Shown here: piece after piece, positions 1,668 to 36,107 of the stretch
Position numbering within the stretch: position 1 is the stretch's first letter
Layout: every line of letters starts with the position of its first letter
Virus record (IMG/VR): IMGVR_UViG_2687453529_000006
Source: a virus
Lineage: Duplodnaviria; Heunggongvirae; Uroviricota; Caudoviricetes
DNA length: 40,565 nt
Direction: 5' to 3' (one strand)
The notes under the pieces: model-generated
The model's database searches: none
The model's input: the letters and a program-made list of their open reading frames with translations, nothing else
What the model was told of the DNA's origin: nothing
Made by a program: the position numbers and the translations under genes

Positions 1668-2765
1668 ATGGCGTACTATAACATAGAGAAACGACTAAAA
1701 TCCGATGGCACACCACGCTATCGCTGTAATGTGATTATCAAAGAAAAAGGGGTTATCACTTACAGGGAAAGCAAAACATTCCCTAAACATGCTCATGCCA
1801 AAACATGGGGCACACAGAAAGTGATGGAATTAGATCTACATGGCATTCCATCATCAAATGCTGTTGACGGGCTTACAGTCCGTGACTTACTACGCAAATA
1901 TTTAAATGACCCAAATGCCGGAGGTAAAGCAGGCCGTACTAAAAGATATGTGCTGGAACTACTTATGGATAGTGACATTTCTGCGATCAGACTATCTGAA
2001 TTAACAGAAAATGACGTAATAGAACATTGCAGGTTGAGAAACAACGCCGGTGCAGGTCCAGCTACTGTTAGCCACGATGTTAGTTATCTTGGCAGTGTTC
2101 TGGATGCAGCCAAACCTGTATACGGAATTAATTACACATCAAACCCAGCAAAAGCCGCTCGTCCATATCTACTTAAACTTGGTTTAATTGGTAAATCAAA
2201 TCGTCGTAATCGTAGACCAGCATCTGATGAACTAGACATGCTCATTGAAGGCCTTCAACAACGATCTACTCATAAATGCTCAAAAATTCCGTTCGTTGAT
2301 ATCCTCAAATTTTCTGTGTGGTCCTGTATGCGAATCGGAGAAGTATGCCGGTTACGATGGGAAGATCTCGACCAGGAACAAAAATCTATACTAGTAAGAG
2401 ACAGGAAAGATCCACGTAAAAAGGAAGGTAACCATATGAAAGTGGCCTTGCTTGGGGAAGCCTGGGATATCGTCCAACGACAACCCAAAAAATCTGAATT
2501 CATTTTTCCATACAACAGCACTTCTGTTACCGCAGGATTTCAGAGGGTAAGAAGCAAATTAGGTATTAAAGATCTGCGATACCATGATTTGCGTAGAGAA
2601 GGGGCAAGTCGCTTATTTGAGGCTGGTTTTAGTATTGAGGAAGTCGCCCAGGTTACAGGGCATCGTTCATTAAACGTGCTATGGCAGGTATATACCGAAC
2701 TGTATCCAAAATCTTTACATAATCGTTTTGAAGAACTCCAAAGGAGCAGAAATAAGACCTCTTGA
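1668..2765 (+). CDS. int: Tyrosine-type site-specific integrase (dusA-associated integrase family)
   Basis: 365 aa; C-terminal catalytic region with R..HDLRR..Y-type motifs (RIGEV..., HDLRREGAS..., YTELY); GAGG RBS; positioned directly at the dusA 5' end. Confidence 0.9.
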   Translation: MAYYNIEKRLKSDGTPRYRCNVIIKEKGVITYRESKTFPKHAHAKTWGTQKVMELDLHGIPSSNAVDGLTVRDLLRKYLNDPNAGGKAGRTKRYVLELLMDSDISAIRLSELTENDVIEHCRLRNNAGAGPATVSHDVSYLGSVLDAAKPVYGINYTSNPAKAARPYLLKLGLIGKSNRRNRRPASDELDMLIEGLQQRSTHKCSKIPFVDILKFSVWSCMRIGEVCRLRWEDLDQEQKSILVRDRKDPRKKEGNHMKVALLGEAWDIVQRQPKKSEFIFPYNSTSVTAGFQRVRSKLGIKDLRYHDLRREGASRLFEAGFSIEEVAQVTGHRSLNVLWQVYTELYPKSLHNRFEELQRSRNKTS

Positions 2766-2813
2766 CACTGTTTATTCATACAGTTAAAAATAATACTGTA
2801 TACAAACACAGTA
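2762..2813 (+). promoter_or_regulatory. Promoter (TTGACA -35) with two LexA (SOS) boxes upstream of the dinI-like gene
   Basis: Two CTGT-N8-ACAG motifs: CTGTttattcatACAG (~2768-2783) and CTGTatacaaacACAG (~2796-2811); TTGACA at ~2762-2767. Confidence 0.6.
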
Positions 2814-2826
2814 TAGAGGGATTTTT

Positions 2827-3075
2827 ATGCGTATTGAGATCTGCATAGCCAAAGAGAAAATGACTAAAATGCCAAACGGTGCTGTGGATGCGTTAAAGGA
2901 AGAATTAACTCGACGCATCAGTAAGCGTTATGACGATGTAGAGGTGATCGTAAAAGCCACCAGCAACGATGGCCTTTCTGTTACGCGCACCGCCGATAAA
3001 GATTCAGCTAAAACTTTTGTTCAGGAAACTCTGAAAGATACCTGGGAGTCTGCTGACGAGTGGTTTGTTCATTAA
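2827..3075 (+). CDS. dinI: DinI-like DNA damage-inducible protein
   Basis: 82 aa; MRIEICIAK...[15 protein letters not shown] resembles DinI family end to end; GAGGG RBS; LexA boxes upstream. Confidence 0.85.
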
Positions 3076-3137
3076 TTAATACGTAAAATCGATAACGGCT
3101 GGAAATCATTCAATACTCGCACTATCGGAAGTTCACC

Positions 3138-3180
3138 AGCCAGCCGCAGTATTCTGCCATGACAAGTTGCTGCGGCTTTT
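3138..3180 (+). terminator. Putative terminator after dinI-like gene
   Basis: Inverted repeat cagccgcag ... ctgcggct followed by TTTTTAT. Confidence 0.35.
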
Positions 3181-3185
3181 TATGT

Positions 3186-3473
3186 TTAACGGATAAACAG
3201 CCAGACCAGCAGACACGCCATCACCGGCACAGCAAAATCCATCAGGCTTGCTACATCCCACACGCGCGGATCAAAACCGCCCCACCACGGCATATTCATA
3301 CGCTTGCCATGTCCGAACATTTCAATCCAGCGATATTCTGCCTGGGTGTGTTCACGCGCAATGAAGAACGTACAACCGGCTATCGCCCCGTAAGCCCAGT
3401 TTCCGGTAAAAAGGCCAATCAGTACCTGTGCAGCCACAGCACAAAGTGCATGAAGGAAAGGTGTTATATCCAT
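3186..3473 (-). CDS. Hypothetical small inner-membrane protein
   Basis: 95-aa ORF with two hydrophobic segments; convergent with dinI; no family recognised. Confidence 0.5.
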   Translation of the reverse strand: MDITPFLHALCAVAAQVLIGLFTGNWAYGAIAGCTFFIAREHTQAEYRWIEMFGHGKRMNMPWWGGFDPRVWDVASLMDFAVPVMACLLVWLFIR

Positions 3474-3483
3474 TACTCCTCCT

Positions 3484-4188
3484 TTATCCGATATCGCTTC
3501 GGGAAGTTGATAACAACTTTAATTCTGACTCAAGTTCATCAACTCTTTCAGTCAGTTTCTGGATATGGTGAATCAGTGGAACAACCAGACGTTCGTACAT
3601 TACACCTTCGGCAACAAGGCCATTGCTGGAAATAGCTTCAGGAGCATCATTCTCGTTAGCTGGTCGCCAGTGAACAAACTGAGGGGCAATTTCTCCTACT
3701 TCCTCGGCAATCAATCCATAGAATCCCCAATCGCGCCTGTCATTTTCGCATTGCGACCTGTACCACACAGGGCGCATCTTGAAAATGAGATCGGCGTGCT
3801 CCGAATCTATCGTCTCTACTGAATGTTTATAGCGGATAGACGATGTGGACCGCAGTACAGACGAAATTGCGGGGTCAGGATTAAGATAAAGGTTTGCCGC
3901 CGCTGTAGTCGTGCCCAATCCCCACAAATAAAACGCTTCACGACCAGTCAGCGGGTAAAAATCTCCACCATAACGACCACTTTCCAGATCGTTCACTTCC
4001 ACTTTGTTTTTCAGCTTATTATCAACTTCAGTTTTTGTGTATCTGGTGCTGATATCCTGCTTTGCACTGGTCATATCAGTCTGAAGCGTTGATACTTTTC
4101 CGTTAATTGAGGAAATATCTTCCTTGGCTTTACTGACATCTCCCTTTAACGTGGTGATGTCTCCTGGAATTACTGTCGATGTAGCCAT
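3484..4188 (-). CDS. Tail fibre-like protein with C-terminal intramolecular chaperone (peptidase S74-like) domain
   Basis: 234 aa; coiled-coil-like N-terminus; C-terminal DWGFYGLIAEEVGEIAPQFV...ELESELKLL resembles the endosialidase-chaperone auto-processing domain. Confidence 0.65.
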   Translation of the reverse strand: MATSTVIPGDITTLKGDVSKAKEDISSINGKVSTLQTDMTSAKQDISTRYTKTEVDNKLKNKVEVNDLESGRYGGDFYPLTGREAFYLWGLGTTTAAANLYLNPDPAISSVLRSTSSIRYKHSVETIDSEHADLIFKMRPVWYRSQCENDRRDWGFYGLIAEEVGEIAPQFVHWRPANENDAPEAISSNGLVAEGVMYERLVVPLIHHIQKLTERVDELESELKLLSTSRSDIG

Positions 4189-23532: not shown

Positions 23533-25266
23533 TTAAAGCGAGCGGATCCCATAGGACTCAATGTGGTCAGACAGCGTGTCTTCTTTCTCGTACAACATGG
23601 CTCTGCCAACCGCCATAATCAGCGCAACTGCACCATCGATTTTGTTTTCCGCCTGCTCTTTGACGGGCTTCACCACATCATCGTTACCCGGGATGGTTTT
23701 GCCGACCACGTTGCCGATACACCAGGTCATGATGGGATTGCCATCATGATGAAAGCGCCCCGATTCAATCGCCGCTTCCAGCTCTTTCATCGGATCGGAC
23801 ATGTTGGTGTAGTTCTGAATGATGGTGATGGGGTTCAGGTCTTCATCAGCAAGGTCATGTGACAGCCCGGTCGCCCCGAAGGGGTCGATGGGTGACTCGC
23901 TGACCGGGCTGATTTTGTTCGCCGCTTTGGCCTCTTCGAGGATGTAGCGATAATCCACCTCTGCACCATCGGTAACTGTCAGGACGCCCATTTCCACCCA
24001 TTTCTGAAAGCGTTCGGCTGTCCGGCGATCTTCATTTTTCTCGACGCTGTACACCGTGTCATACGGTACCCAGAAACGAGGGGCCACACTGTAGTAATGC
24101 GTTTTACCGTCAATCTCGCGGGTATAAAGTCGCGCCATGCTGTTCATATCCAGTTTACGCGCCAGGTCAAAGGCCAGAATGCACGGCTGCCCCTCGAATT
24201 GCTCAAGAGTCAGTGATTTATCCTCACAGCTCTGCCAGCTCACCAGGTTGAAATACGCCGAACGCGCCGACACCCAGATATTGAGGTGTTTTGTTTTAAA
24301 GACGTTTGCCAGACGGGCGTTATTTTTCGCACGCTGCTGCTGACTTAACAAAAATTCGCGATAAACCGACACGCCAATATTTGGATTGGCTTTTTCCAGC
24401 ACCTGCGGGTCGGTCCAGTCGTCACCTTCATCAACGGTATAGATGATCCCGAACAGTTCATCGTTGGGCACCGAGCCGTTGAGCATCTCGATGACTTCCC
24501 GCCGCTTGTCGTAGCACGGCCCCTCAATGTTGTACCCGGCAGTGGTGATGGCCCACATCAGTGGCTGACGTCGCGCCCCCATCCCGGTAAGCATCGTGGT
24601 GTAAAGCGCATCGGTGGCGTGCTCGTGATATTCATCCACCACCGCACAGTGGGGTGATGAACCATCACCGGGGTTACCGATCAGCGGTTCAAACCGCGCG
24701 CCATCCTCCGGACGGTTCATGTTTGAGGCGTTAACCTCAATCCCGAACGCTTCCGTCAGCATTGGTGTGCGTTTACACATCAGTCGCGCCGGACGAAAGA
24801 CTTCCCACGCCTGTTTCTCTGTCGTGGCACCGGAATACACTTCCGCGCCAAACTCGTTATCACAGGCAAAACAATACAGGGCAACACCGGCAGAGATTGC
24901 CGATTTACCGTTCTTACGGGGAATTTCGGTATACACCTCCCGGAAGCGGCGCAACCGGGTGCCTTTATTGACCCAGCCAAACGCACAGCAGATCACAAAT
25001 AGCTGCCACGGCTCCAGCGTGATGGGCATCCGTTTAAATGCCCACTCACCCTTGGTGTGCGGCAACAGCTGAATAAATTTGGCGGCCCGTTCAGCCAGGT
25101 CCTTGTCGAAGCGGTAACGAAACGACTTACTTTTTTCCGCCATCAGGTCATCAAGATGGCGCTGGCAGGCCTGAATCACAAACTGGCAGGCAACAATCTT
25201 TCCGCGCACGACATCCCGGGCATACTGATTTGCAGCATTTACGTTGGGGTAAGATTTCCGGCTCAT
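23533..25266 (-). CDS. Terminase large subunit
   Basis: 577 aa; ATPase region (…[16 protein letters not shown]...; ...[10 protein letters not shown]...) and nuclease-like C-terminus. Confidence 0.95.
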
Positions 25267-28814: not shown

Positions 28815-29567
28815 CTATCGTGTCACTTTTTGCAACTGTAACTCTGCGAATGCTTCTTCCTGCCAGCACTTTGTTACCAGTTTATCAATGACGTCTGCAT
28901 ATCCTTTGTACCACTGATAATCCGTCAGGTCTGGTACCAGCTTCTGGACATGACGTCGTGCCAGTGTGGTCGGTAAACGACTAAACCGATTTCCATTGCA
29001 ACGCCCACAAATCTTATAAACAGGCGCGCCATGAAGCCGGGTTCTTTTTTCATCCAGGACAATGCCTTTACCCTTACACCCTCTGCAAGCCGTGCTGACT
29101 TCTCCCTTACCATGGCAATGCTGACATAATTCCTTCACCCACTCTTCCTTGATAACAGACTCACCGCTTCTGGAGTGTTTCACCACTTCGCGCAATACAT
29201 TATGAAATCCAGTACCAGCACAATGCTCACAGCGAGCCTTACTTGCCGCAGACCTGGAATAATCAGCAAAGGCAAAATTCACAAGGTAAGTGATGATCTG
29301 TAACCGGGTTTCTTCACTCAATTTGTTCAATGTCGGGTTATCCAGTGCCATCGCGTAATTGAGCAGACCTTCAATCGCAAACTGAGGATCCTGAACACCA
29401 ACTTTTGCCAGGAATAAGGCAAACCCAAGCGGTGCTTTCGACTGCACCATCCCCTGCGCAGCCATCACATCCGTAATCGTTAAACCACCCGAGCCTGTCG
29501 CCGGTGCCTCATCGCTCAATTTGGGAGATTTTGGGGAGTAATATTTTGGTAAGGCTTCAAGGTTCAT
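28815..29567 (-). CDS. Q: Late-gene antitermination protein Q (QuuQ-like, CxxC zinc-finger)
   Basis: 250 aa with multiple CxxC pairs; resembles E. coli Qin QuuQ as remembered; directly upstream of lysis genes. Confidence 0.8.
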   Translation of the reverse strand: MNLEALPKYYSPKSPKLSDEAPATGSGGLTITDVMAAQGMVQSKAPLGFALFLAKVGVQDPQFAIEGLLNYAMALDNPTLNKLSEETRLQIITYLVNFAFADYSRSAASKARCEHCAGTGFHNVLREVVKHSRSGESVIKEEWVKELCQHCHGKGEVSTACRGCKGKGIVLDEKRTRLHGAPVYKICGRCNGNRFSRLPTTLARRHVQKLVPDLTDYQWYKGYADVIDKLVTKCWQEEAFAELQLQKVTR

Positions 29568-34205: not shown

Positions 34206-34544
34206 CTATTTCCCTGAATTTACGACGAAACTGTTCGAGCGGACTGAAGCATTCATGCTCATAGCCTTCGCGGAGGTAGATAACCCGTTGTGTTTCCGGC
34301 TCCCAACGAATGACTCTGACGGGTACTCCGTAGTGATCTTTGAACCAGCGGTTAATTTGTCGCAAAGGACTGTCTCCTTCTGCCGGTTGAAATCACCCAC
34401 AGCCCACTCTGCAAAGCTGTGGGTTACAATTTCCCTGTCACCTGGTACATTCACTGCATAGCAATACTCCACCTTCGCTTTTCCACCCGGTACAGGAAGC
34501 GCAATCAGTTGCGAGCGACGGTAGGGTGTTGTTAAACTGTTCAT
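34206..34544 (-). CDS. Hypothetical protein between CII-like and replication genes
   Basis: 112-aa ORF whose start overlaps the upstream stop (ATGA-type coupling); no family recognised. Confidence 0.4.
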
Positions 34545-35110
34545 GCGTTAGTTTCTCCACAACCAGAAGCAATCGACGCCACGACGCCCGGAGCTGCACA
34601 CTCGCGGGCGTCATTACTTTCTGAAATGCAAAAGATTTTGTAGACCAGTGCTGCATGCTCCTGCAGCTTCGAAATTGACAGGTACAGTTCGTCGTTAATT
34701 GCTGCCTGCTCGTGTGGTTCCACCACCCCGTCTTCAATTGCTGAACGAATCTGTTTTGAATAACTGCCGATCTGTTCAATGACCTCCAGCAGGCGTTGGT
34801 TGATATCGGCGTTCTCTACTTCCTCAATTTCAGGAAGCGATACAAACACCCCACCAGCAGACTGTGCGACTGCATCCGCAATGTGGTGAGTGCCAGCAGC
34901 ACGCTGTAAAACCATTGCCCATCCCAGCGGGAAAATCTGATCGCCATCGGCACGAAGGCGGTTAAATAATGCGTTCTCTGTTACATCCAGCCAGTCAGCA
35001 GCTTCAGCGTAACCCCCCGGCAATGCCGCGATAGTTTTTCTGACAGCTTTCACGTACCACTCAGGCTGTTTTTCTACTTTCCAGTGATGCTTACCCACGG
35101 TTAGCCTCAT
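34541..35110 (-). CDS. CII-like regulatory protein (YdaT/CP76-like)
   Basis: 189 aa immediately downstream of the cro-like gene; family assignment from memory. Confidence 0.5.
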
Positions 35111-35141: not shown

Positions 35142-35342
35142 TTAATCTTTCGGATAGATATCCGGTCTTAAGTCAGATTTCGTAATTGCACCTGACGTGC
35201 ATTGCTCAATTTTTTTAGCCAGCACAAAACTGGCTTTTTTATAACCATTGAAAACCAGCCGTAAGTAGCCTGGTGTTGAGCCAACTTTTCCGGCCAACTC
35301 GCCCTGCTGTTCTTTGGTTAAAGAGTCCCAATACGCTTTCAT
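35142..35342 (-). CDS. Cro-like HTH regulator (YdaS-like)
   Basis: 66 aa from Met9 with GGAGG RBS; ...GKVGSTPGYLRLVFNGYKKAS... HTH-like; divergent from cI. Confidence 0.7.
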   Translation of the reverse strand: MKAYWDSLTKEQQGELAGKVGSTPGYLRLVFNGYKKASFVLAKKIEQCTSGAITKSDLRPDIYPKD

Positions 35343-35343
35343 A

Positions 35344-35417
35344 CAATATGTACCTCCGATGTACATATTACATGATTAAAATGAACCTTCAAGATACTTG
35401 TACCTTAACGGTACAAG
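35344..35417. promoter_or_regulatory. Immunity-region operators and divergent promoters
   Basis: Perfect palindromes AATATGTAC-ctccgat-GTACATATT and CTTGTACC-ttaac-GGTACAAG; minus-strand TTGAAG-16-TAATAT promoter for cro; weak -35/-10 for cI. Confidence 0.6.
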
Positions 35418-35432
35418 GGTTTTAATTTCATT

Positions 35433-36107
35433 ATGAAAACAGTCCATGACATCCGGCGGTCTAACGCCAGAAAACTGAGAGATGGTGTTGGCGGGAATTC
35501 TTCCTTTGCCACCATGATTGATCGCGAGCCGACCCAGACCAGCAGGTTTATGGGAGATGGTGCAACTAAAAATATCGGTGACAGCATGGCACGGCACATC
35601 GAAAAATGTTTCGACCTGCCTGTCGGATGGCTTGATCAAGAACACCAGACAACGAACATCACAAAAAAACCTGATGTTTCAATCACTAACAAACAAATAA
35701 CGTTAGTCCCTGTCATATCATGGGTACAGGCCGGAGCATGGAAAGAAGTTGGTTATTCTGAGGTTGATTTGAGCACAGCAGAAACTTATCCCTGCCCTGT
35801 ACCCTGTGGTGAAATGACTTATATCTTGCGGGTGATTGGTGATTCAATGATTGATGAGTACCGCCCAGGAGACATGATTTTTGTTGATCCTGAAGTCCCT
35901 GCCTGCCACGGTGACGACGTTATTGCATTGATGCACGATACAGGCGAAACCACCTTCAAGCGGTTGATAGAAGATGGAACACAGCGTTACCTCAAAGCAT
36001 TAAACCCAAACTGGCCTGAACCTTACATTAAGATCAACGGTAATTGCTCTATAATTGGTACAGTGATTTTCTCGGGAAAACCAAGAAGATACAAAATAAA
36101 GACCTAA
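35433..36107 (+). CDS. cI: CI-like repressor (HTH plus S24 LexA-like peptidase domain)
   Basis: 224 aa; C-terminal ...LRVIGDSMIDEYRPGDMIFVDPE... with Ser and Lys of S24 autocleavage domain. Confidence 0.9.
   Translation: MKTVHDIRRSNARKLRDGVGGNSSFATMIDREPTQTSRFMGDGATKNIGDSMARHIEKCFDLPVGWLDQEHQTTNITKKPDVSITNKQITLVPVISWVQAGAWKEVGYSEVDLSTAETYPCPVPCGEMTYILRVIGDSMIDEYRPGDMIFVDPEVPACHGDDVIALMHDTGETTFKRLIEDGTQRYLKALNPNWPEPYIKINGNCSIIGTVIFSGKPRRYKIKT

Follow-up and report, generated by a model that had tools for sequence, protein, structure and literature searches.

A dinI-like gene in a lambda-like prophage

The stretch of DNA analyzed here (the window; 40,565 nucleotides) carries, in this order, dusA, an integrase gene, a dinI-like gene and tail-fibre genes of lambdoid type; E. 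coli chromosomes with the same annotation match it at 100% identity. The carrier of the dinI-like gene is a lambda-like prophage (mEp460-like) integrated at dusA of E. coli. The gene is preceded by a promoter containing two predicted LexA boxes and followed by a two-hairpin element (Table 1). Since the repressor of this prophage contains a Peptidase_S24 domain, RecA-dependent repressor self-cleavage is the expected route of induction.

Table 1. Features of the dinI-like cassette and the prophage repressor (positions in the window)
Feature	Position	Strand	Remarks
-35 element, TTGACA	2762-2767	+	overlaps integrase stop TGA 2763-2765; left edge of cassette
LexA box 1 (predicted), CACTGTTTATTCATACAGTT	2766-2785	+	core CTGTTTATTCATACAG 2768-2783; fills -35/-10 spacer
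Probable -10 element, TAAAAA	2785-2790	+	17-bp spacing; alternative AAAAAT 2786-2791, 18 bp
LexA box 2 (predicted), TACTGTATACAAACACAGTA	2794-2813	+	core CTGTATACAAACACAG 2796-2811; 15 nt before ATG
RBS, GAGGG	2816-2820	+	6 nt before ATG; read from the sequence
dinI-like gene	2827-3075	+	ATG 2827; 82 aa + stop; DinI paralogue
TAnAAT motif	3084-3089	+	7 nt before helix 1; possible -10 element or processing site
Helix 1	3097-3141	+	GGCTGG 3097-3102 with CCAGCC 3136-3141; dinI 3' UTR
Helix 1 loop, conserved 21-mer CATTCAATACTCGCACTATCG	3107-3127	+	
Helix 2	3142-3182	+	AGCCGCAGTA 3142-3151 with TGCTGCGGCT 3168-3177; T run T3177-T3181 overlaps last stem base
Prophage repressor	35433-36107		Peptidase_S24 domain

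The product of the dinI-like gene matched Pfam family PF06183 with 70.8 bits (cut-off 24.2; E = 1.2e-19), with residues 16-80 aligned to profile positions 1-63. Using phmmer, residues 1-81 matched DinI (PDB 1GHH/7YWA) over its full length (E = 8e-13), and PHROG 189 ("RecA filament binding protein DinI") was matched at E = 4e-31. The protein is entered in RefSeq as WP_001217539.1, "DinI-like family protein". Together with the gene order of the window, the PF06183, PDB and PHROG matches bear out the proposal of a first-pass annotation that a prophage-borne dinI homologue lies at this locus. The NCBIfam equivalog model for DinI (NF007893; cut-off 111) gave 72.5 bits for the prophage protein and 174.6 for K-12 DinI. 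Thus, the prophage protein is a paralogue, its activity may differ from that of DinI, and the name "DinI-like" is correct.

The residues through which DinI contacts RecA form a hydrophobic pocket and an acidic patch (PMC9926225). All eight are kept in the prophage protein, five as identical and three as conservative residues: L13, L21, W71, W77, and F78 of DinI align with M15, L23, W73, W79, and F80, while the acidic residues E24, E69, and D76 align with E26, D71, and E78. The protein is clearly under purifying selection as judged from its dN/dS of 0.03-0.13; in distant pairs, synonymous sites are saturated. Chromosomal dinI of K-12 (b1061) resembles the prophage gene in Pfam family, size, RecA-contact residues, and the overlap of a LexA box with the promoter. 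However, the two proteins are only 48% identical, and the prophage subfamily has a two-residue insertion after A8 (IAKEK..KMP) and lacks the two-residue "GH" segment of K-12 DinI.

Coliphage 186 likewise has a DinI domain in a gene under LexA control, that of the antirepressor Tum, whose C-terminal half is DinI-like. In contrast, the prophage protein consists of the DinI domain alone, without the antirepressor half. The prophage protein matches positions 71-149 of the 151-position PHROG 189 profile, which fits the presence of longer, Tum-like members in this family.

Two predicted LexA operators occupy the dinI promoter

The motif CTGT-N8-ACAG occurs exactly twice in the 40,565 bases of the window, both times in the dinI promoter. 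As stated in the first-pass annotation, the two motifs lie between the TTGACA and the RBS. Shuffled windows contained a mean of 0.59 matches, and since 15 of 100 shuffles had two or more, we dropped the raw motif count as evidence for LexA sites. The significance of the boxes derives instead from their clustering, scores, AT-rich cores and conservation.

The two boxes are 28 bp apart within one promoter. Comparison of the 20-mers with the consensus TACTGTATATATATACAGTA gave 15/20 matches for box 1 and 17/20 for box 2; the proven K-12 dinI box has 15/20. Heterology indices were 4.5 for box 1 and 3.1 for box 2, and no other site in the window scored better than 12.3; these values are rough, since they come from an approximate matrix rebuilt from LexA sites of the literature, and only their ranks are reliable. 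For the K-12 dinI box, the rebuilt matrix gives 4.1, against a reported value of ~6.2. We found no published heterology-index matrix or LexA site list in the literature searched. An AT-rich core was absent from all 31 other CTG-N10-CAG matches in the window.

A promoter consensus scan returned TTGACA-18-AAAAAT (10/12), and diverged copies of the promoter have TAAAAA, TAAATA or TAAACA at 17-bp spacing. The -10 element is weak whether read as TAAAAA or AAAAAT. Box 2 begins 4-6 nt past this element, and transcription would start at ~2795-2798, within box 2. As in promoters of the LexA regulon, near-consensus CTG-N10-CAG operators overlap the core promoter and predicted start and are conserved in orthologous promoters whose adjoining bases vary. 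The position of the sites, where a bound repressor would block RNA polymerase, and their selective conservation support the LexA control envisaged at first pass, and we infer that LexA binds here. In K-12 dinI the arrangement is different: a single box (ACCTGTATAAATAACCAGTA) covers the -10 element, whereas in the cassette the first box lies in the spacer and the second over the start.

The operator pair is conserved across genera

Both boxes were present in 59 of 59 close copies, as two CTG-N10-CAG sites 28-29 bp apart. Variation in box 1 was confined to the central bases, and box 2 was intact in every close copy and lay 15-17 nt from the ATG in diverged copies. The layout, in which the -35 element, box 1 in the spacer, the -10 element and box 2 over the start follow one another, recurred in at least five genera with differing box sequences, and copies from several genera kept the TTGACA directly followed by CTGT.

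When DinI-family genes were sampled from one genome per species, 75 of 80 had at least one CTG-N10-CAG site within 110 bp upstream, compared with a chance expectation of ~0.03 per gene. In the 82-residue prophage subfamily there were mostly two sites, one ~42-44 nt and the other 15-17 nt before the ATG. Box sequences differed among the genera with this two-site arrangement, which were Escherichia, Shigella, Trabulsiella, Mixta, and Erwinia; a Pantoea copy kept box 1 but had a box 2 one base off the pattern. Judged from these comparisons, the conservation shows that the box pair is under selection.

The cassette is mobile and common in E. coli

Homology to loci in other contexts ended on the left at 2761/2762 (13 loci) and on the right at 3146-3178 (64 loci). 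Insertions into lambdoid phages consisting of a promoter, a gene and a terminator are known as morons, a concept attributed to Juhala and Hendrix (2000). The dinI cassette has its own promoter and terminator and unrelated flanks, and its homology ends at both signals. With other lambdoid morons it shares the promoter and terminator, predicted expression from the repressed prophage and the occurrence in many unrelated contexts; in contrast to them, its promoter would be gated by the SOS repressor of the host instead of being constitutive. We therefore consider it probable (roughly 75%) that 2762-3182 is a self-contained, SOS-inducible moron carried as cargo by a lambda-like prophage and made up of a sigma-70 promoter, two LexA operators, a DinI paralogue and a hairpin terminator.

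A BLAST restricted to the promoter and CDS detected the cassette in 1679 of 5426 complete E. coli genomes (~31%), with 3360 copies in all. In these genomes the gene product was always annotated "DinI-like family protein". There were up to 7 copies per genome, such counts being found in O157:H7-type genomes. A first BLAST count of 4099 of 5426 genomes was rejected because matches to the conserved 3' element and to a remnant of the K-12 type had inflated it. The arrangement, which had been put forward as notable, is thus common, and its principle is already published: LexA-gated prophage dinI homologues are known from Gifsy-1/2/3, phiKO2, and Serratia phage OS31. For this particular cassette, we found no experiments in the searchable literature.

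Comparison with known prophage dinI homologues

The Gifsy dinI homologues, too, are prophage-borne DinI paralogues that lie directly behind a sigma-70 promoter, and their LexA box is near the ATG. Their expression is induced by SOS and shut off in the lysogen before induction (PMC3121763; Merida-Floriano et al., 2021, PMC8072944), as we predict for the present cassette. Their products accumulate after mitomycin C in dependence on the LexA box region (PMC3121763), and nalidixic acid induces them 4.6- to 23-fold (PMC8072944). The related proteins in this comparison, P0074 and P0085, are 74-76% identical to the prophage protein.

There are three differences. For the Gifsy copies a single box has been reported, at 19 bp from the ATG, whereas the present cassette has two. 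The Gifsy genes head an operon that also includes a gene for a small antirepressor (gfoA/gftA) and irsA, while here no gene lies between dinI and the terminator: we detected no antirepressor of this type, as no + strand ORF of at least 30 residues occurs from 3075 to the terminator (3142-3182), and the 107-nt interval after the dinI stop is a non-coding structured element. Lastly, the present prophage has an S24 self-cleaving repressor, whereas the Gifsy repressors are controlled by antirepressors.

In phiKO2 and Serratia phage OS31, as here, a DinI-like gene lies beside and opposite to tail-fibre genes; the OS31 gene has a LexA box 14 bp upstream, and the phiKO2 gene is LexA-regulated (PMC7556043). 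However, neither is a lambda-like prophage, one box has been described, and the OS31 gene has a translationally coupled second ORF.

A two-hairpin element follows dinI

We aligned 96 distinct copies of the element downstream of dinI. RNAalifold recovered only the base of hairpin 2 from this alignment, and pairing was scored by counting pairs in a structure specified by hand. In helix 1, 93.9% of cells were paired, and four of the six pairs showed changes on both sides, such as G-C to A-U in 25 sequences. This helix 1 element is present as a single copy in the window. Helix 2 covaried at 11 of 12 pairs across the 96 copies, and the RNA fold of its region had an energy of -31.4 kcal/mol (z -2.4). 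Counts for the successive columns of the upstream TAnAAT motif were T86, A90, (A62/C23/G10/T1), A92, A89, and T93. The motif is possibly a -10 element or a processing site; no conserved -35 or TGn motif was seen.

From its stem and T run, helix 2 is at this locus an intrinsic-terminator-like hairpin that would end both the dinI transcription unit and the cassette. A terminator consensus scan of the region returned no match, hairpin 2 included, because its 16-nt loop exceeds the limit of the scan. An Rfam search of 2300-3700 with E up to 1 also gave no match.

Since 71 of the 96 copies are not beside dinI, the element does not need dinI. It also occurs in phage lambda (24190-24262), between ea31 and ea47 and 3.5 kb from lambda attP; in HK633, annotated there as attP; and in the K-12 chromosome between ykgJ and ecpE, where a decayed 3' half of dinI precedes it. 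The order dinI, element, ykgJ homologue recurs in some phage contigs. An interpretation of the element as no more than the attP of an HK633-type integrase is weakened by the dinI remnant upstream of the K-12 copy, by these contigs and by the distance of the lambda copy from attP. That 3084-3182 represents a structured RNA widespread in lambdoid phages and not described before, coupled to SOS by read-through from the dinI promoter, is suggested by the covariation but seems unlikely to us at present.

Discussion

A model for the prophage cassette begins in the undamaged lysogen, where LexA dimers would sit on operator 1 within the -35/-10 spacer and on operator 2 at the transcription start and jointly keep out RNA polymerase. 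With two sites near consensus, repression should be tight and be relieved only upon strong depletion of LexA. Upon DNA damage, RecA filaments would stimulate LexA self-cleavage, the 82-residue protein would be made from the still-integrated prophage and it would join the pool of chromosomal DinI. We infer that it binds RecA, with its hydrophobic pocket receiving F203 and its acidic patch lying against K232, R243, and K245. The protein could then stabilize the RecA filament while filling the site of slow-cleaving substrates, namely UmuD and CI-type phage repressors.

The S24 self-cleaving repressor of this prophage makes an effect of prophage DinI on induction plausible. Our preferred consequence is that cleavage of this repressor and of UmuD would be delayed, or its threshold raised. 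We favor only tentatively, and at somewhat less than even odds, the view that the cassette dampens induction and mutagenesis at moderate damage through later cleavage of the repressor and UmuD. Stoichiometric DinI stabilizes filaments, whereas excess DinI is inhibitory (PMC6590174), so an effect of either sign on repressor cleavage could result. The only published deletions of prophage dinI homologues count against a role in induction: non-polar deletions of those of Gifsy-1 and Gifsy-3 did not affect induction significantly (PMC3121763). This result may not transfer to the present prophage, since the Gifsy prophages use antirepressors and not repressor cleavage.

A substantial competitor, to which we give about one chance in three, is lysogenic conversion, in which the cassette is kept mainly for the benefit of the host and any effect on induction of the phage is incidental. 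The extra DinI would damp UmuD processing, SOS mutagenesis or SOS-linked killing under DNA-damaging antibiotics. Consistent with this, movement of the cassette is not tied to phage type or integrase, its frequency and copy number in E. coli are as given above, and deletion of the Gifsy dinI homologues left induction unchanged. A review-level summary states that excess DinI inhibits UmuD cleavage, and in an association study that is correlative, the accessory genes linked to emerging quinolone resistance in E. coli included a DinI-like gene of a viral region (PMC10575684). Host benefit is also compatible with damped induction, and the same biochemistry underlies both.

The opposite sign, in which phage DinI stabilizes RecA filaments, prolongs the SOS signal, promotes cleavage of CI-type repressors and so commits the lysogen, appears to us unlikely. 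In its favor, DinI lengthens and stabilizes RecA filaments (PMC9926225) and is described in the literature as a positive modulator of RecA at stoichiometric levels. However, DinI, UmuD, and lambda CI share elements of the RecA groove (PMC9926225), and one DinI occupies them per two RecA protomers; with the groove elements shared between DinI and lambda CI, direct competition is expected.

We think it less likely still that selection acts partly or mainly on an RNA product, with the two-hairpin element (3084-3182) acting as a regulatory RNA made damage-inducible by the LexA-controlled dinI promoter. Besides the strong covariation in 96 distinct copies, this reading could draw on the excess of G-U over A-C pairs on the dinI-sense strand (120 vs 52), on a core that is identical in elements where the synonymous sites of dinI are saturated and on the precedent of DinR, which is cut from dinI mRNA in Klebsiella (PMC10907235). 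Against it stand the many copies that do not adjoin dinI, a T run after hairpin 2 in only about a third of copies, the absence of an Rfam match and the purifying selection on the protein itself. Lastly, it is hardly credible that both CTGT-N8-ACAG motifs are palindromes arisen by chance in a promoter rich in AT and that LexA does not regulate the gene: shuffles can reach two matches, but these sites are clustered, have flanks and AT-rich cores near consensus, rank first and second in the 40.5 kb, far ahead of any other site, are both retained in all close copies at a position conserved across genera despite sequence turnover and have relatives that are experimentally LexA-dependent (PMC3121763, PMC8072944).

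When DNA-damaging antibiotics induce prophages, toxins are released, genes are transferred and lysogens are killed. Few cargo genes of E. coli prophages are as common as the DinI-like genes, whose role is still called elusive. Because its repressor is self-cleaving, the present prophage offers a cleaner test bed than Gifsy for an effect of phage DinI on the induction threshold. Current understanding is unchanged, as the cassette is the expected LexA-gated RecA modulator, a common and already understood kind of cargo. The double-operator layout conserved across genera is a small new detail that predicts unusually tight and late SOS expression. We judge the widespread, strongly covarying 3' element to be the more interesting finding; if it is indeed a structured RNA, the cassette would have a dual output of protein and RNA, like dinI/DinR in Klebsiella.

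Promoter and predicted LexA operators of the prophage dinI-like gene

The first-pass annotation described two CTGT-N8-ACAG motifs between a TTGACA element and the ribosome-binding site of a DinI-like gene, and all are present as described. These sites, box 1 (20-mer 2766-2785) and box 2 (2794-2813), are the only matches to the pattern in the 40,565-base window. Since at least two matches occurred in 15 of 100 shuffles of the window, the raw count is weak evidence. Both boxes fall within one promoter, 28 bp apart, and match the LexA consensus at 15/20 (box 1) and 17/20 (box 2) positions, compared to 15/20 for the experimentally known box of K-12 dinI. Using an approximate heterology index (HI) matrix rebuilt from known LexA sites, for which ranks are reliable and values are not, box 1 scored 4.5 and box 2 scored 3.1, with no site below 12.3 elsewhere in the window. 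The AT-rich core typical of LexA sites was absent from all 31 other CTG-N10-CAG matches in the window.

The layout is conserved. Both CTG-N10-CAG sites were kept in 59 of 59 IMG/VR and E. coli copies with sufficient upstream sequence, and the stricter CTGT-N8-ACAG pair in 58, with substitutions solely at the central bases of box 1. Among DinI-family genes from GTDB (one genome per species), 75 of 80 had at least one CTG-N10-CAG site within 110 bp upstream, where chance predicts ~0.03 per gene. The 82-amino-acid subfamily, which includes the window gene, mostly has two sites, one ~42-44 nt and the other ~15-17 nt ahead of the ATG, a layout found in Escherichia, Shigella, Trabulsiella, Mixta, and Erwinia; in Pantoea, box 1 is preserved and box 2 deviates from the pattern at a single base. 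The arrangement TTGACA-CTGT...CAG-TAAA(A/T/C)A-...CTGT...CAG was retained across copies although box interiors differ. As the distance between boxes varies from 24 to 29 bp between genera, the comparison argues for two predicted operators that are bound independently, rather than by fixed helical phasing. Box 1 and box 2 are probably LexA operators through which the dinI-like gene is repressed. The LexA/SOS control proposed at first reading is thus probably right, based on spacing, consensus match, HI rank, and conservation.

Features of the dinI cassette and its surroundings (window positions unless stated)
Feature	Position	Strand	Remarks
dusA	542-1579	-
Tyrosine integrase	1668-2765	+	directly beside dusA; precedes dinI cassette
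-35 hexamer TTGACA	2762-2767	+	sequence read
Box 1 core CTGTTTATTCATACAG	2768-2783	+	sequence read; fills spacer directly after -35
Weak -10		+	promoter scan; TAAAAA at 17-bp spacing, scan prefers AAAAAT at 18 bp
Box 2 core CTGTATACAAACACAG	2796-2811	+	sequence read; over expected transcription start, end 15 nt before ATG
GAGGG	2816-2820	+	sequence read
dinI-like ORF	2827 (ATG)-3075	+	82 codons
Terminator hairpin stems AGCCGCAGTA/TGCTGCGGCT	3142-3151/3168-3177	+	then T run T3177-T3181, overlapping last stem base
95-aa hydrophobic ORF	3186-3473	-	function unassigned; PHROG 1443 E 1e-57, no Pfam match; convergent with dinI
Antiterminator Q gene	28815-29567		late-regulatory region, further on
CII-like gene	34541-35110		immunity region
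Cro-like gene	35142-35366	-	weak YdaS_toxin HTH match
224-aa repressor with Peptidase_S24	35433-36107	+	immunity region; divergent from Cro-like gene
K-12 dinI remnant and 3' element	L166 (E. coli K-12 locus) ~2747-2960; NC_000913.3 ~304,246-304,460	- (L166)

The product retains the RecA-contacting residues of DinI

The identity assigned to the gene, a prophage dinI homologue, was borne out by matches to Pfam PF06183 (70.8 bits, cut-off 24.2), to the full length of E. coli DinI in PDB 1GHH/7YWA (E 8e-13), and to PHROG 189, "RecA filament binding protein DinI". The protein is 48% identical to K-12 DinI and scored 72.5 bits, below the NCBIfam DinI equivalog cut-off of 111 bits, while K-12 DinI scored 174.6. 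Judged from its sequence, the gene is a DinI paralogue, not the chromosomal orthologue.

In the cryo-EM structure of the RecA-DinI filament, DinI L13, L21, W71, W77, and F78 form a pocket for RecA F203, and E24, E69, and D76 face RecA K232/R243/K245 (PMC9926225). Alignment with K-12 DinI places M15, L23, W73, W79, and F80 of the window protein at the pocket positions and E26, D71, and E78 at the acidic ones; each of the eight contact positions is either identical or conservatively substituted. Purifying selection acts on the gene, with dN/dS of 0.03-0.13 against relatives without saturation; against distant copies such as that of Pantoea, where synonymous sites are saturated, pN was 0.15-0.22.

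The cassette is a widespread moron in a lambdoid prophage

In copies from other contexts, homology begins exactly at the -35 hexamer (2761/2762) and ends in or just past the terminator hairpin (3146-3178). Therefore, 2762-3182 constitutes a promoter-gene-terminator "moron". Of 5426 complete E. coli genomes, 1679 carry promoter and CDS (at least 80% coverage), with 3360 loci in total and as many as 7 in a single genome; the annotation is always "DinI-like family protein". A higher count (4099/5426) was discarded, as it was inflated by matches to the element that follows the gene. Another 179 deposited phage genomes carry promoter and CDS, among them mEp460, whose record already has the promoter and a DinI-like protein annotated, as well as cdtI, 2H10, and numerous Stx phages. 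Enterobacterial-type cassettes with LexA boxes, encoding proteins 68-72% identical to the window protein, were also present in records titled Chryseobacterium sp. 18061 (L088) and Candidatus Saccharibacteria MAG (L092); these assemblies labelled non-Enterobacterales probably reflect contamination or mis-binning.

The window is 100% identical to several E. coli chromosomes, and the integration point adjoins the 5' end of dusA. The dinI -35 hexamer overlaps the integrase stop codon; with no terminator between the two genes, transcription from the integrase gene could continue into the predicted LexA operators. The 95-aa ORF separates the cassette from lambdoid tail-fibre genes on the minus strand. 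Integration parts int and dinI from the early leftward operon, which would leave the LexA-gated promoter as the only evident route to dinI expression before excision.

A structured element follows dinI

The ~100 nt past the dinI stop codon are not ordinary spacer but a conserved two-hairpin non-coding element (3' element, 3084-3182). Pair counting on 96 distinct copies, with a hand-specified two-hairpin structure, gave 92.5% of cells paired and changes on both sides in 15 of 18 pairs (131 cells). None of 500 shuffles reached any pairing or covariation measure, a statistic that related sequences can inflate, and slid controls were 27-57% paired. On the dinI-sense strand, G-U pairs exceeded A-C pairs 120 to 52. 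Helix 1 is preceded, at a distance of 7 nt, by a TAnAAT motif whose third base varies freely. Pattern-found copies show no variation in the 21-nt loop core, in part because the search pattern itself fixes this sequence; however, the L088 and Pantoea copies, recovered through the protein instead, share the identical core, and K-12 and lambda depart from it by one or two bases. A T run follows hairpin 2 in only about a third of copies, and no Rfam family matches the element. RefSeq (PGAP) places at 3072-3152 (minus strand), overlapping the element, a 27-codon pseudogene fragment labelled "capsid protein"; the reverse-strand frame across 3060-3185 is interrupted by stop codons, and the fragment is probably spurious.

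Searching with the core pattern recovered at least 120 viral contigs (L167-L286). Among the matches listed, 96 copies had sufficient flanking sequence, and 71 of them lacked dinI upstream. Lambda (NC_001416, L164) carries the element at 24190-24262 between ea31 and ea47 (90% identity), with no dinI nearby, and phi80-like phages and many IMG/VR contigs likewise carry it without dinI. In at least six copies the element directly adjoins the 3' end of a sequence resembling ssrA, as comparison with K-12 ssrA confirmed. HK633 (L165), also without dinI, has the element between int and stf; its annotation there as attP may stem from common phage ancestry and not mark an actual attachment site. In K-12 it lies between ecpE and ykgJ (92% identity), after what remains of a dinI-like gene, a decayed 3' half lacking RefSeq annotation. 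Since four phage contigs (L064, L067, L079, L081; 84-85% identity) have the order dinI, 3' element, ykgJ homologue, the K-12 ykgJ region may be an old prophage end. The element could be a terminator combined with a regulatory RNA, a processing site, or a recombination boundary. That it encodes a widespread lambdoid structured RNA, made damage-inducible by the dinI promoter, seems to us unlikely.

Proposed role and relation to known systems

The best-supported account is that LexA would repress the dinI-like gene at two operators, the SOS response would derepress the promoter, and the small protein then made would bind the RecA filament groove. Extra DinI would be expected to compete with slow substrates. 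Because the repressor carries Peptidase_S24, the prophage is expected to be induced through RecA-stimulated repressor self-cleavage, unlike Gifsy prophages, whose induction runs via antirepressors (PMC3121763). We favor, at a probability of roughly 40%, a role in which the DinI-like protein damps cleavage of the prophage repressor and UmuD. Alternatively, the host may benefit, through damping of SOS and mutagenesis or through quinolone tolerance. The protein could also act in feed-forward, a role with which filament stabilization by DinI is consistent. The one reported genetic test, which used non-polar deletions of the Gifsy-1 and Gifsy-3 homologues, showed no significant effect on induction (PMC3121763).

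LexA control of such genes has precedent. A LexA box precedes the Gifsy dinI homologues, which accumulate after mitomycin C (Lemire et al., 2011; PMC3121763); they are listed as SOS genes whose single box lies 19 bp from the ATG, and the chromosomal dinI of Salmonella carries a pair of boxes, at 19 and 42 bp (Merida-Floriano et al., 2021; PMC8072944). Serratia phage OS31 carries a DinI-like gene opposite its tail-fibre genes with a LexA box 14 bp upstream, the phiKO2 gene is stated to be LexA-regulated, and genes of this type are described as frequent among temperate phages (PMC7556043). In Klebsiella, a LexA box covers the dinI start site (PMC10907235). Compared to the single-box Gifsy copies, the window cassette has two strong predicted operators, a subfamily trait across genera; it is also monocistronic, without an antirepressor, and resides in a prophage with a self-cleaving-type (S24) repressor. 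The cassette therefore belongs to an already published kind, and is common and already annotated; the three traits just named are what is specific to it.
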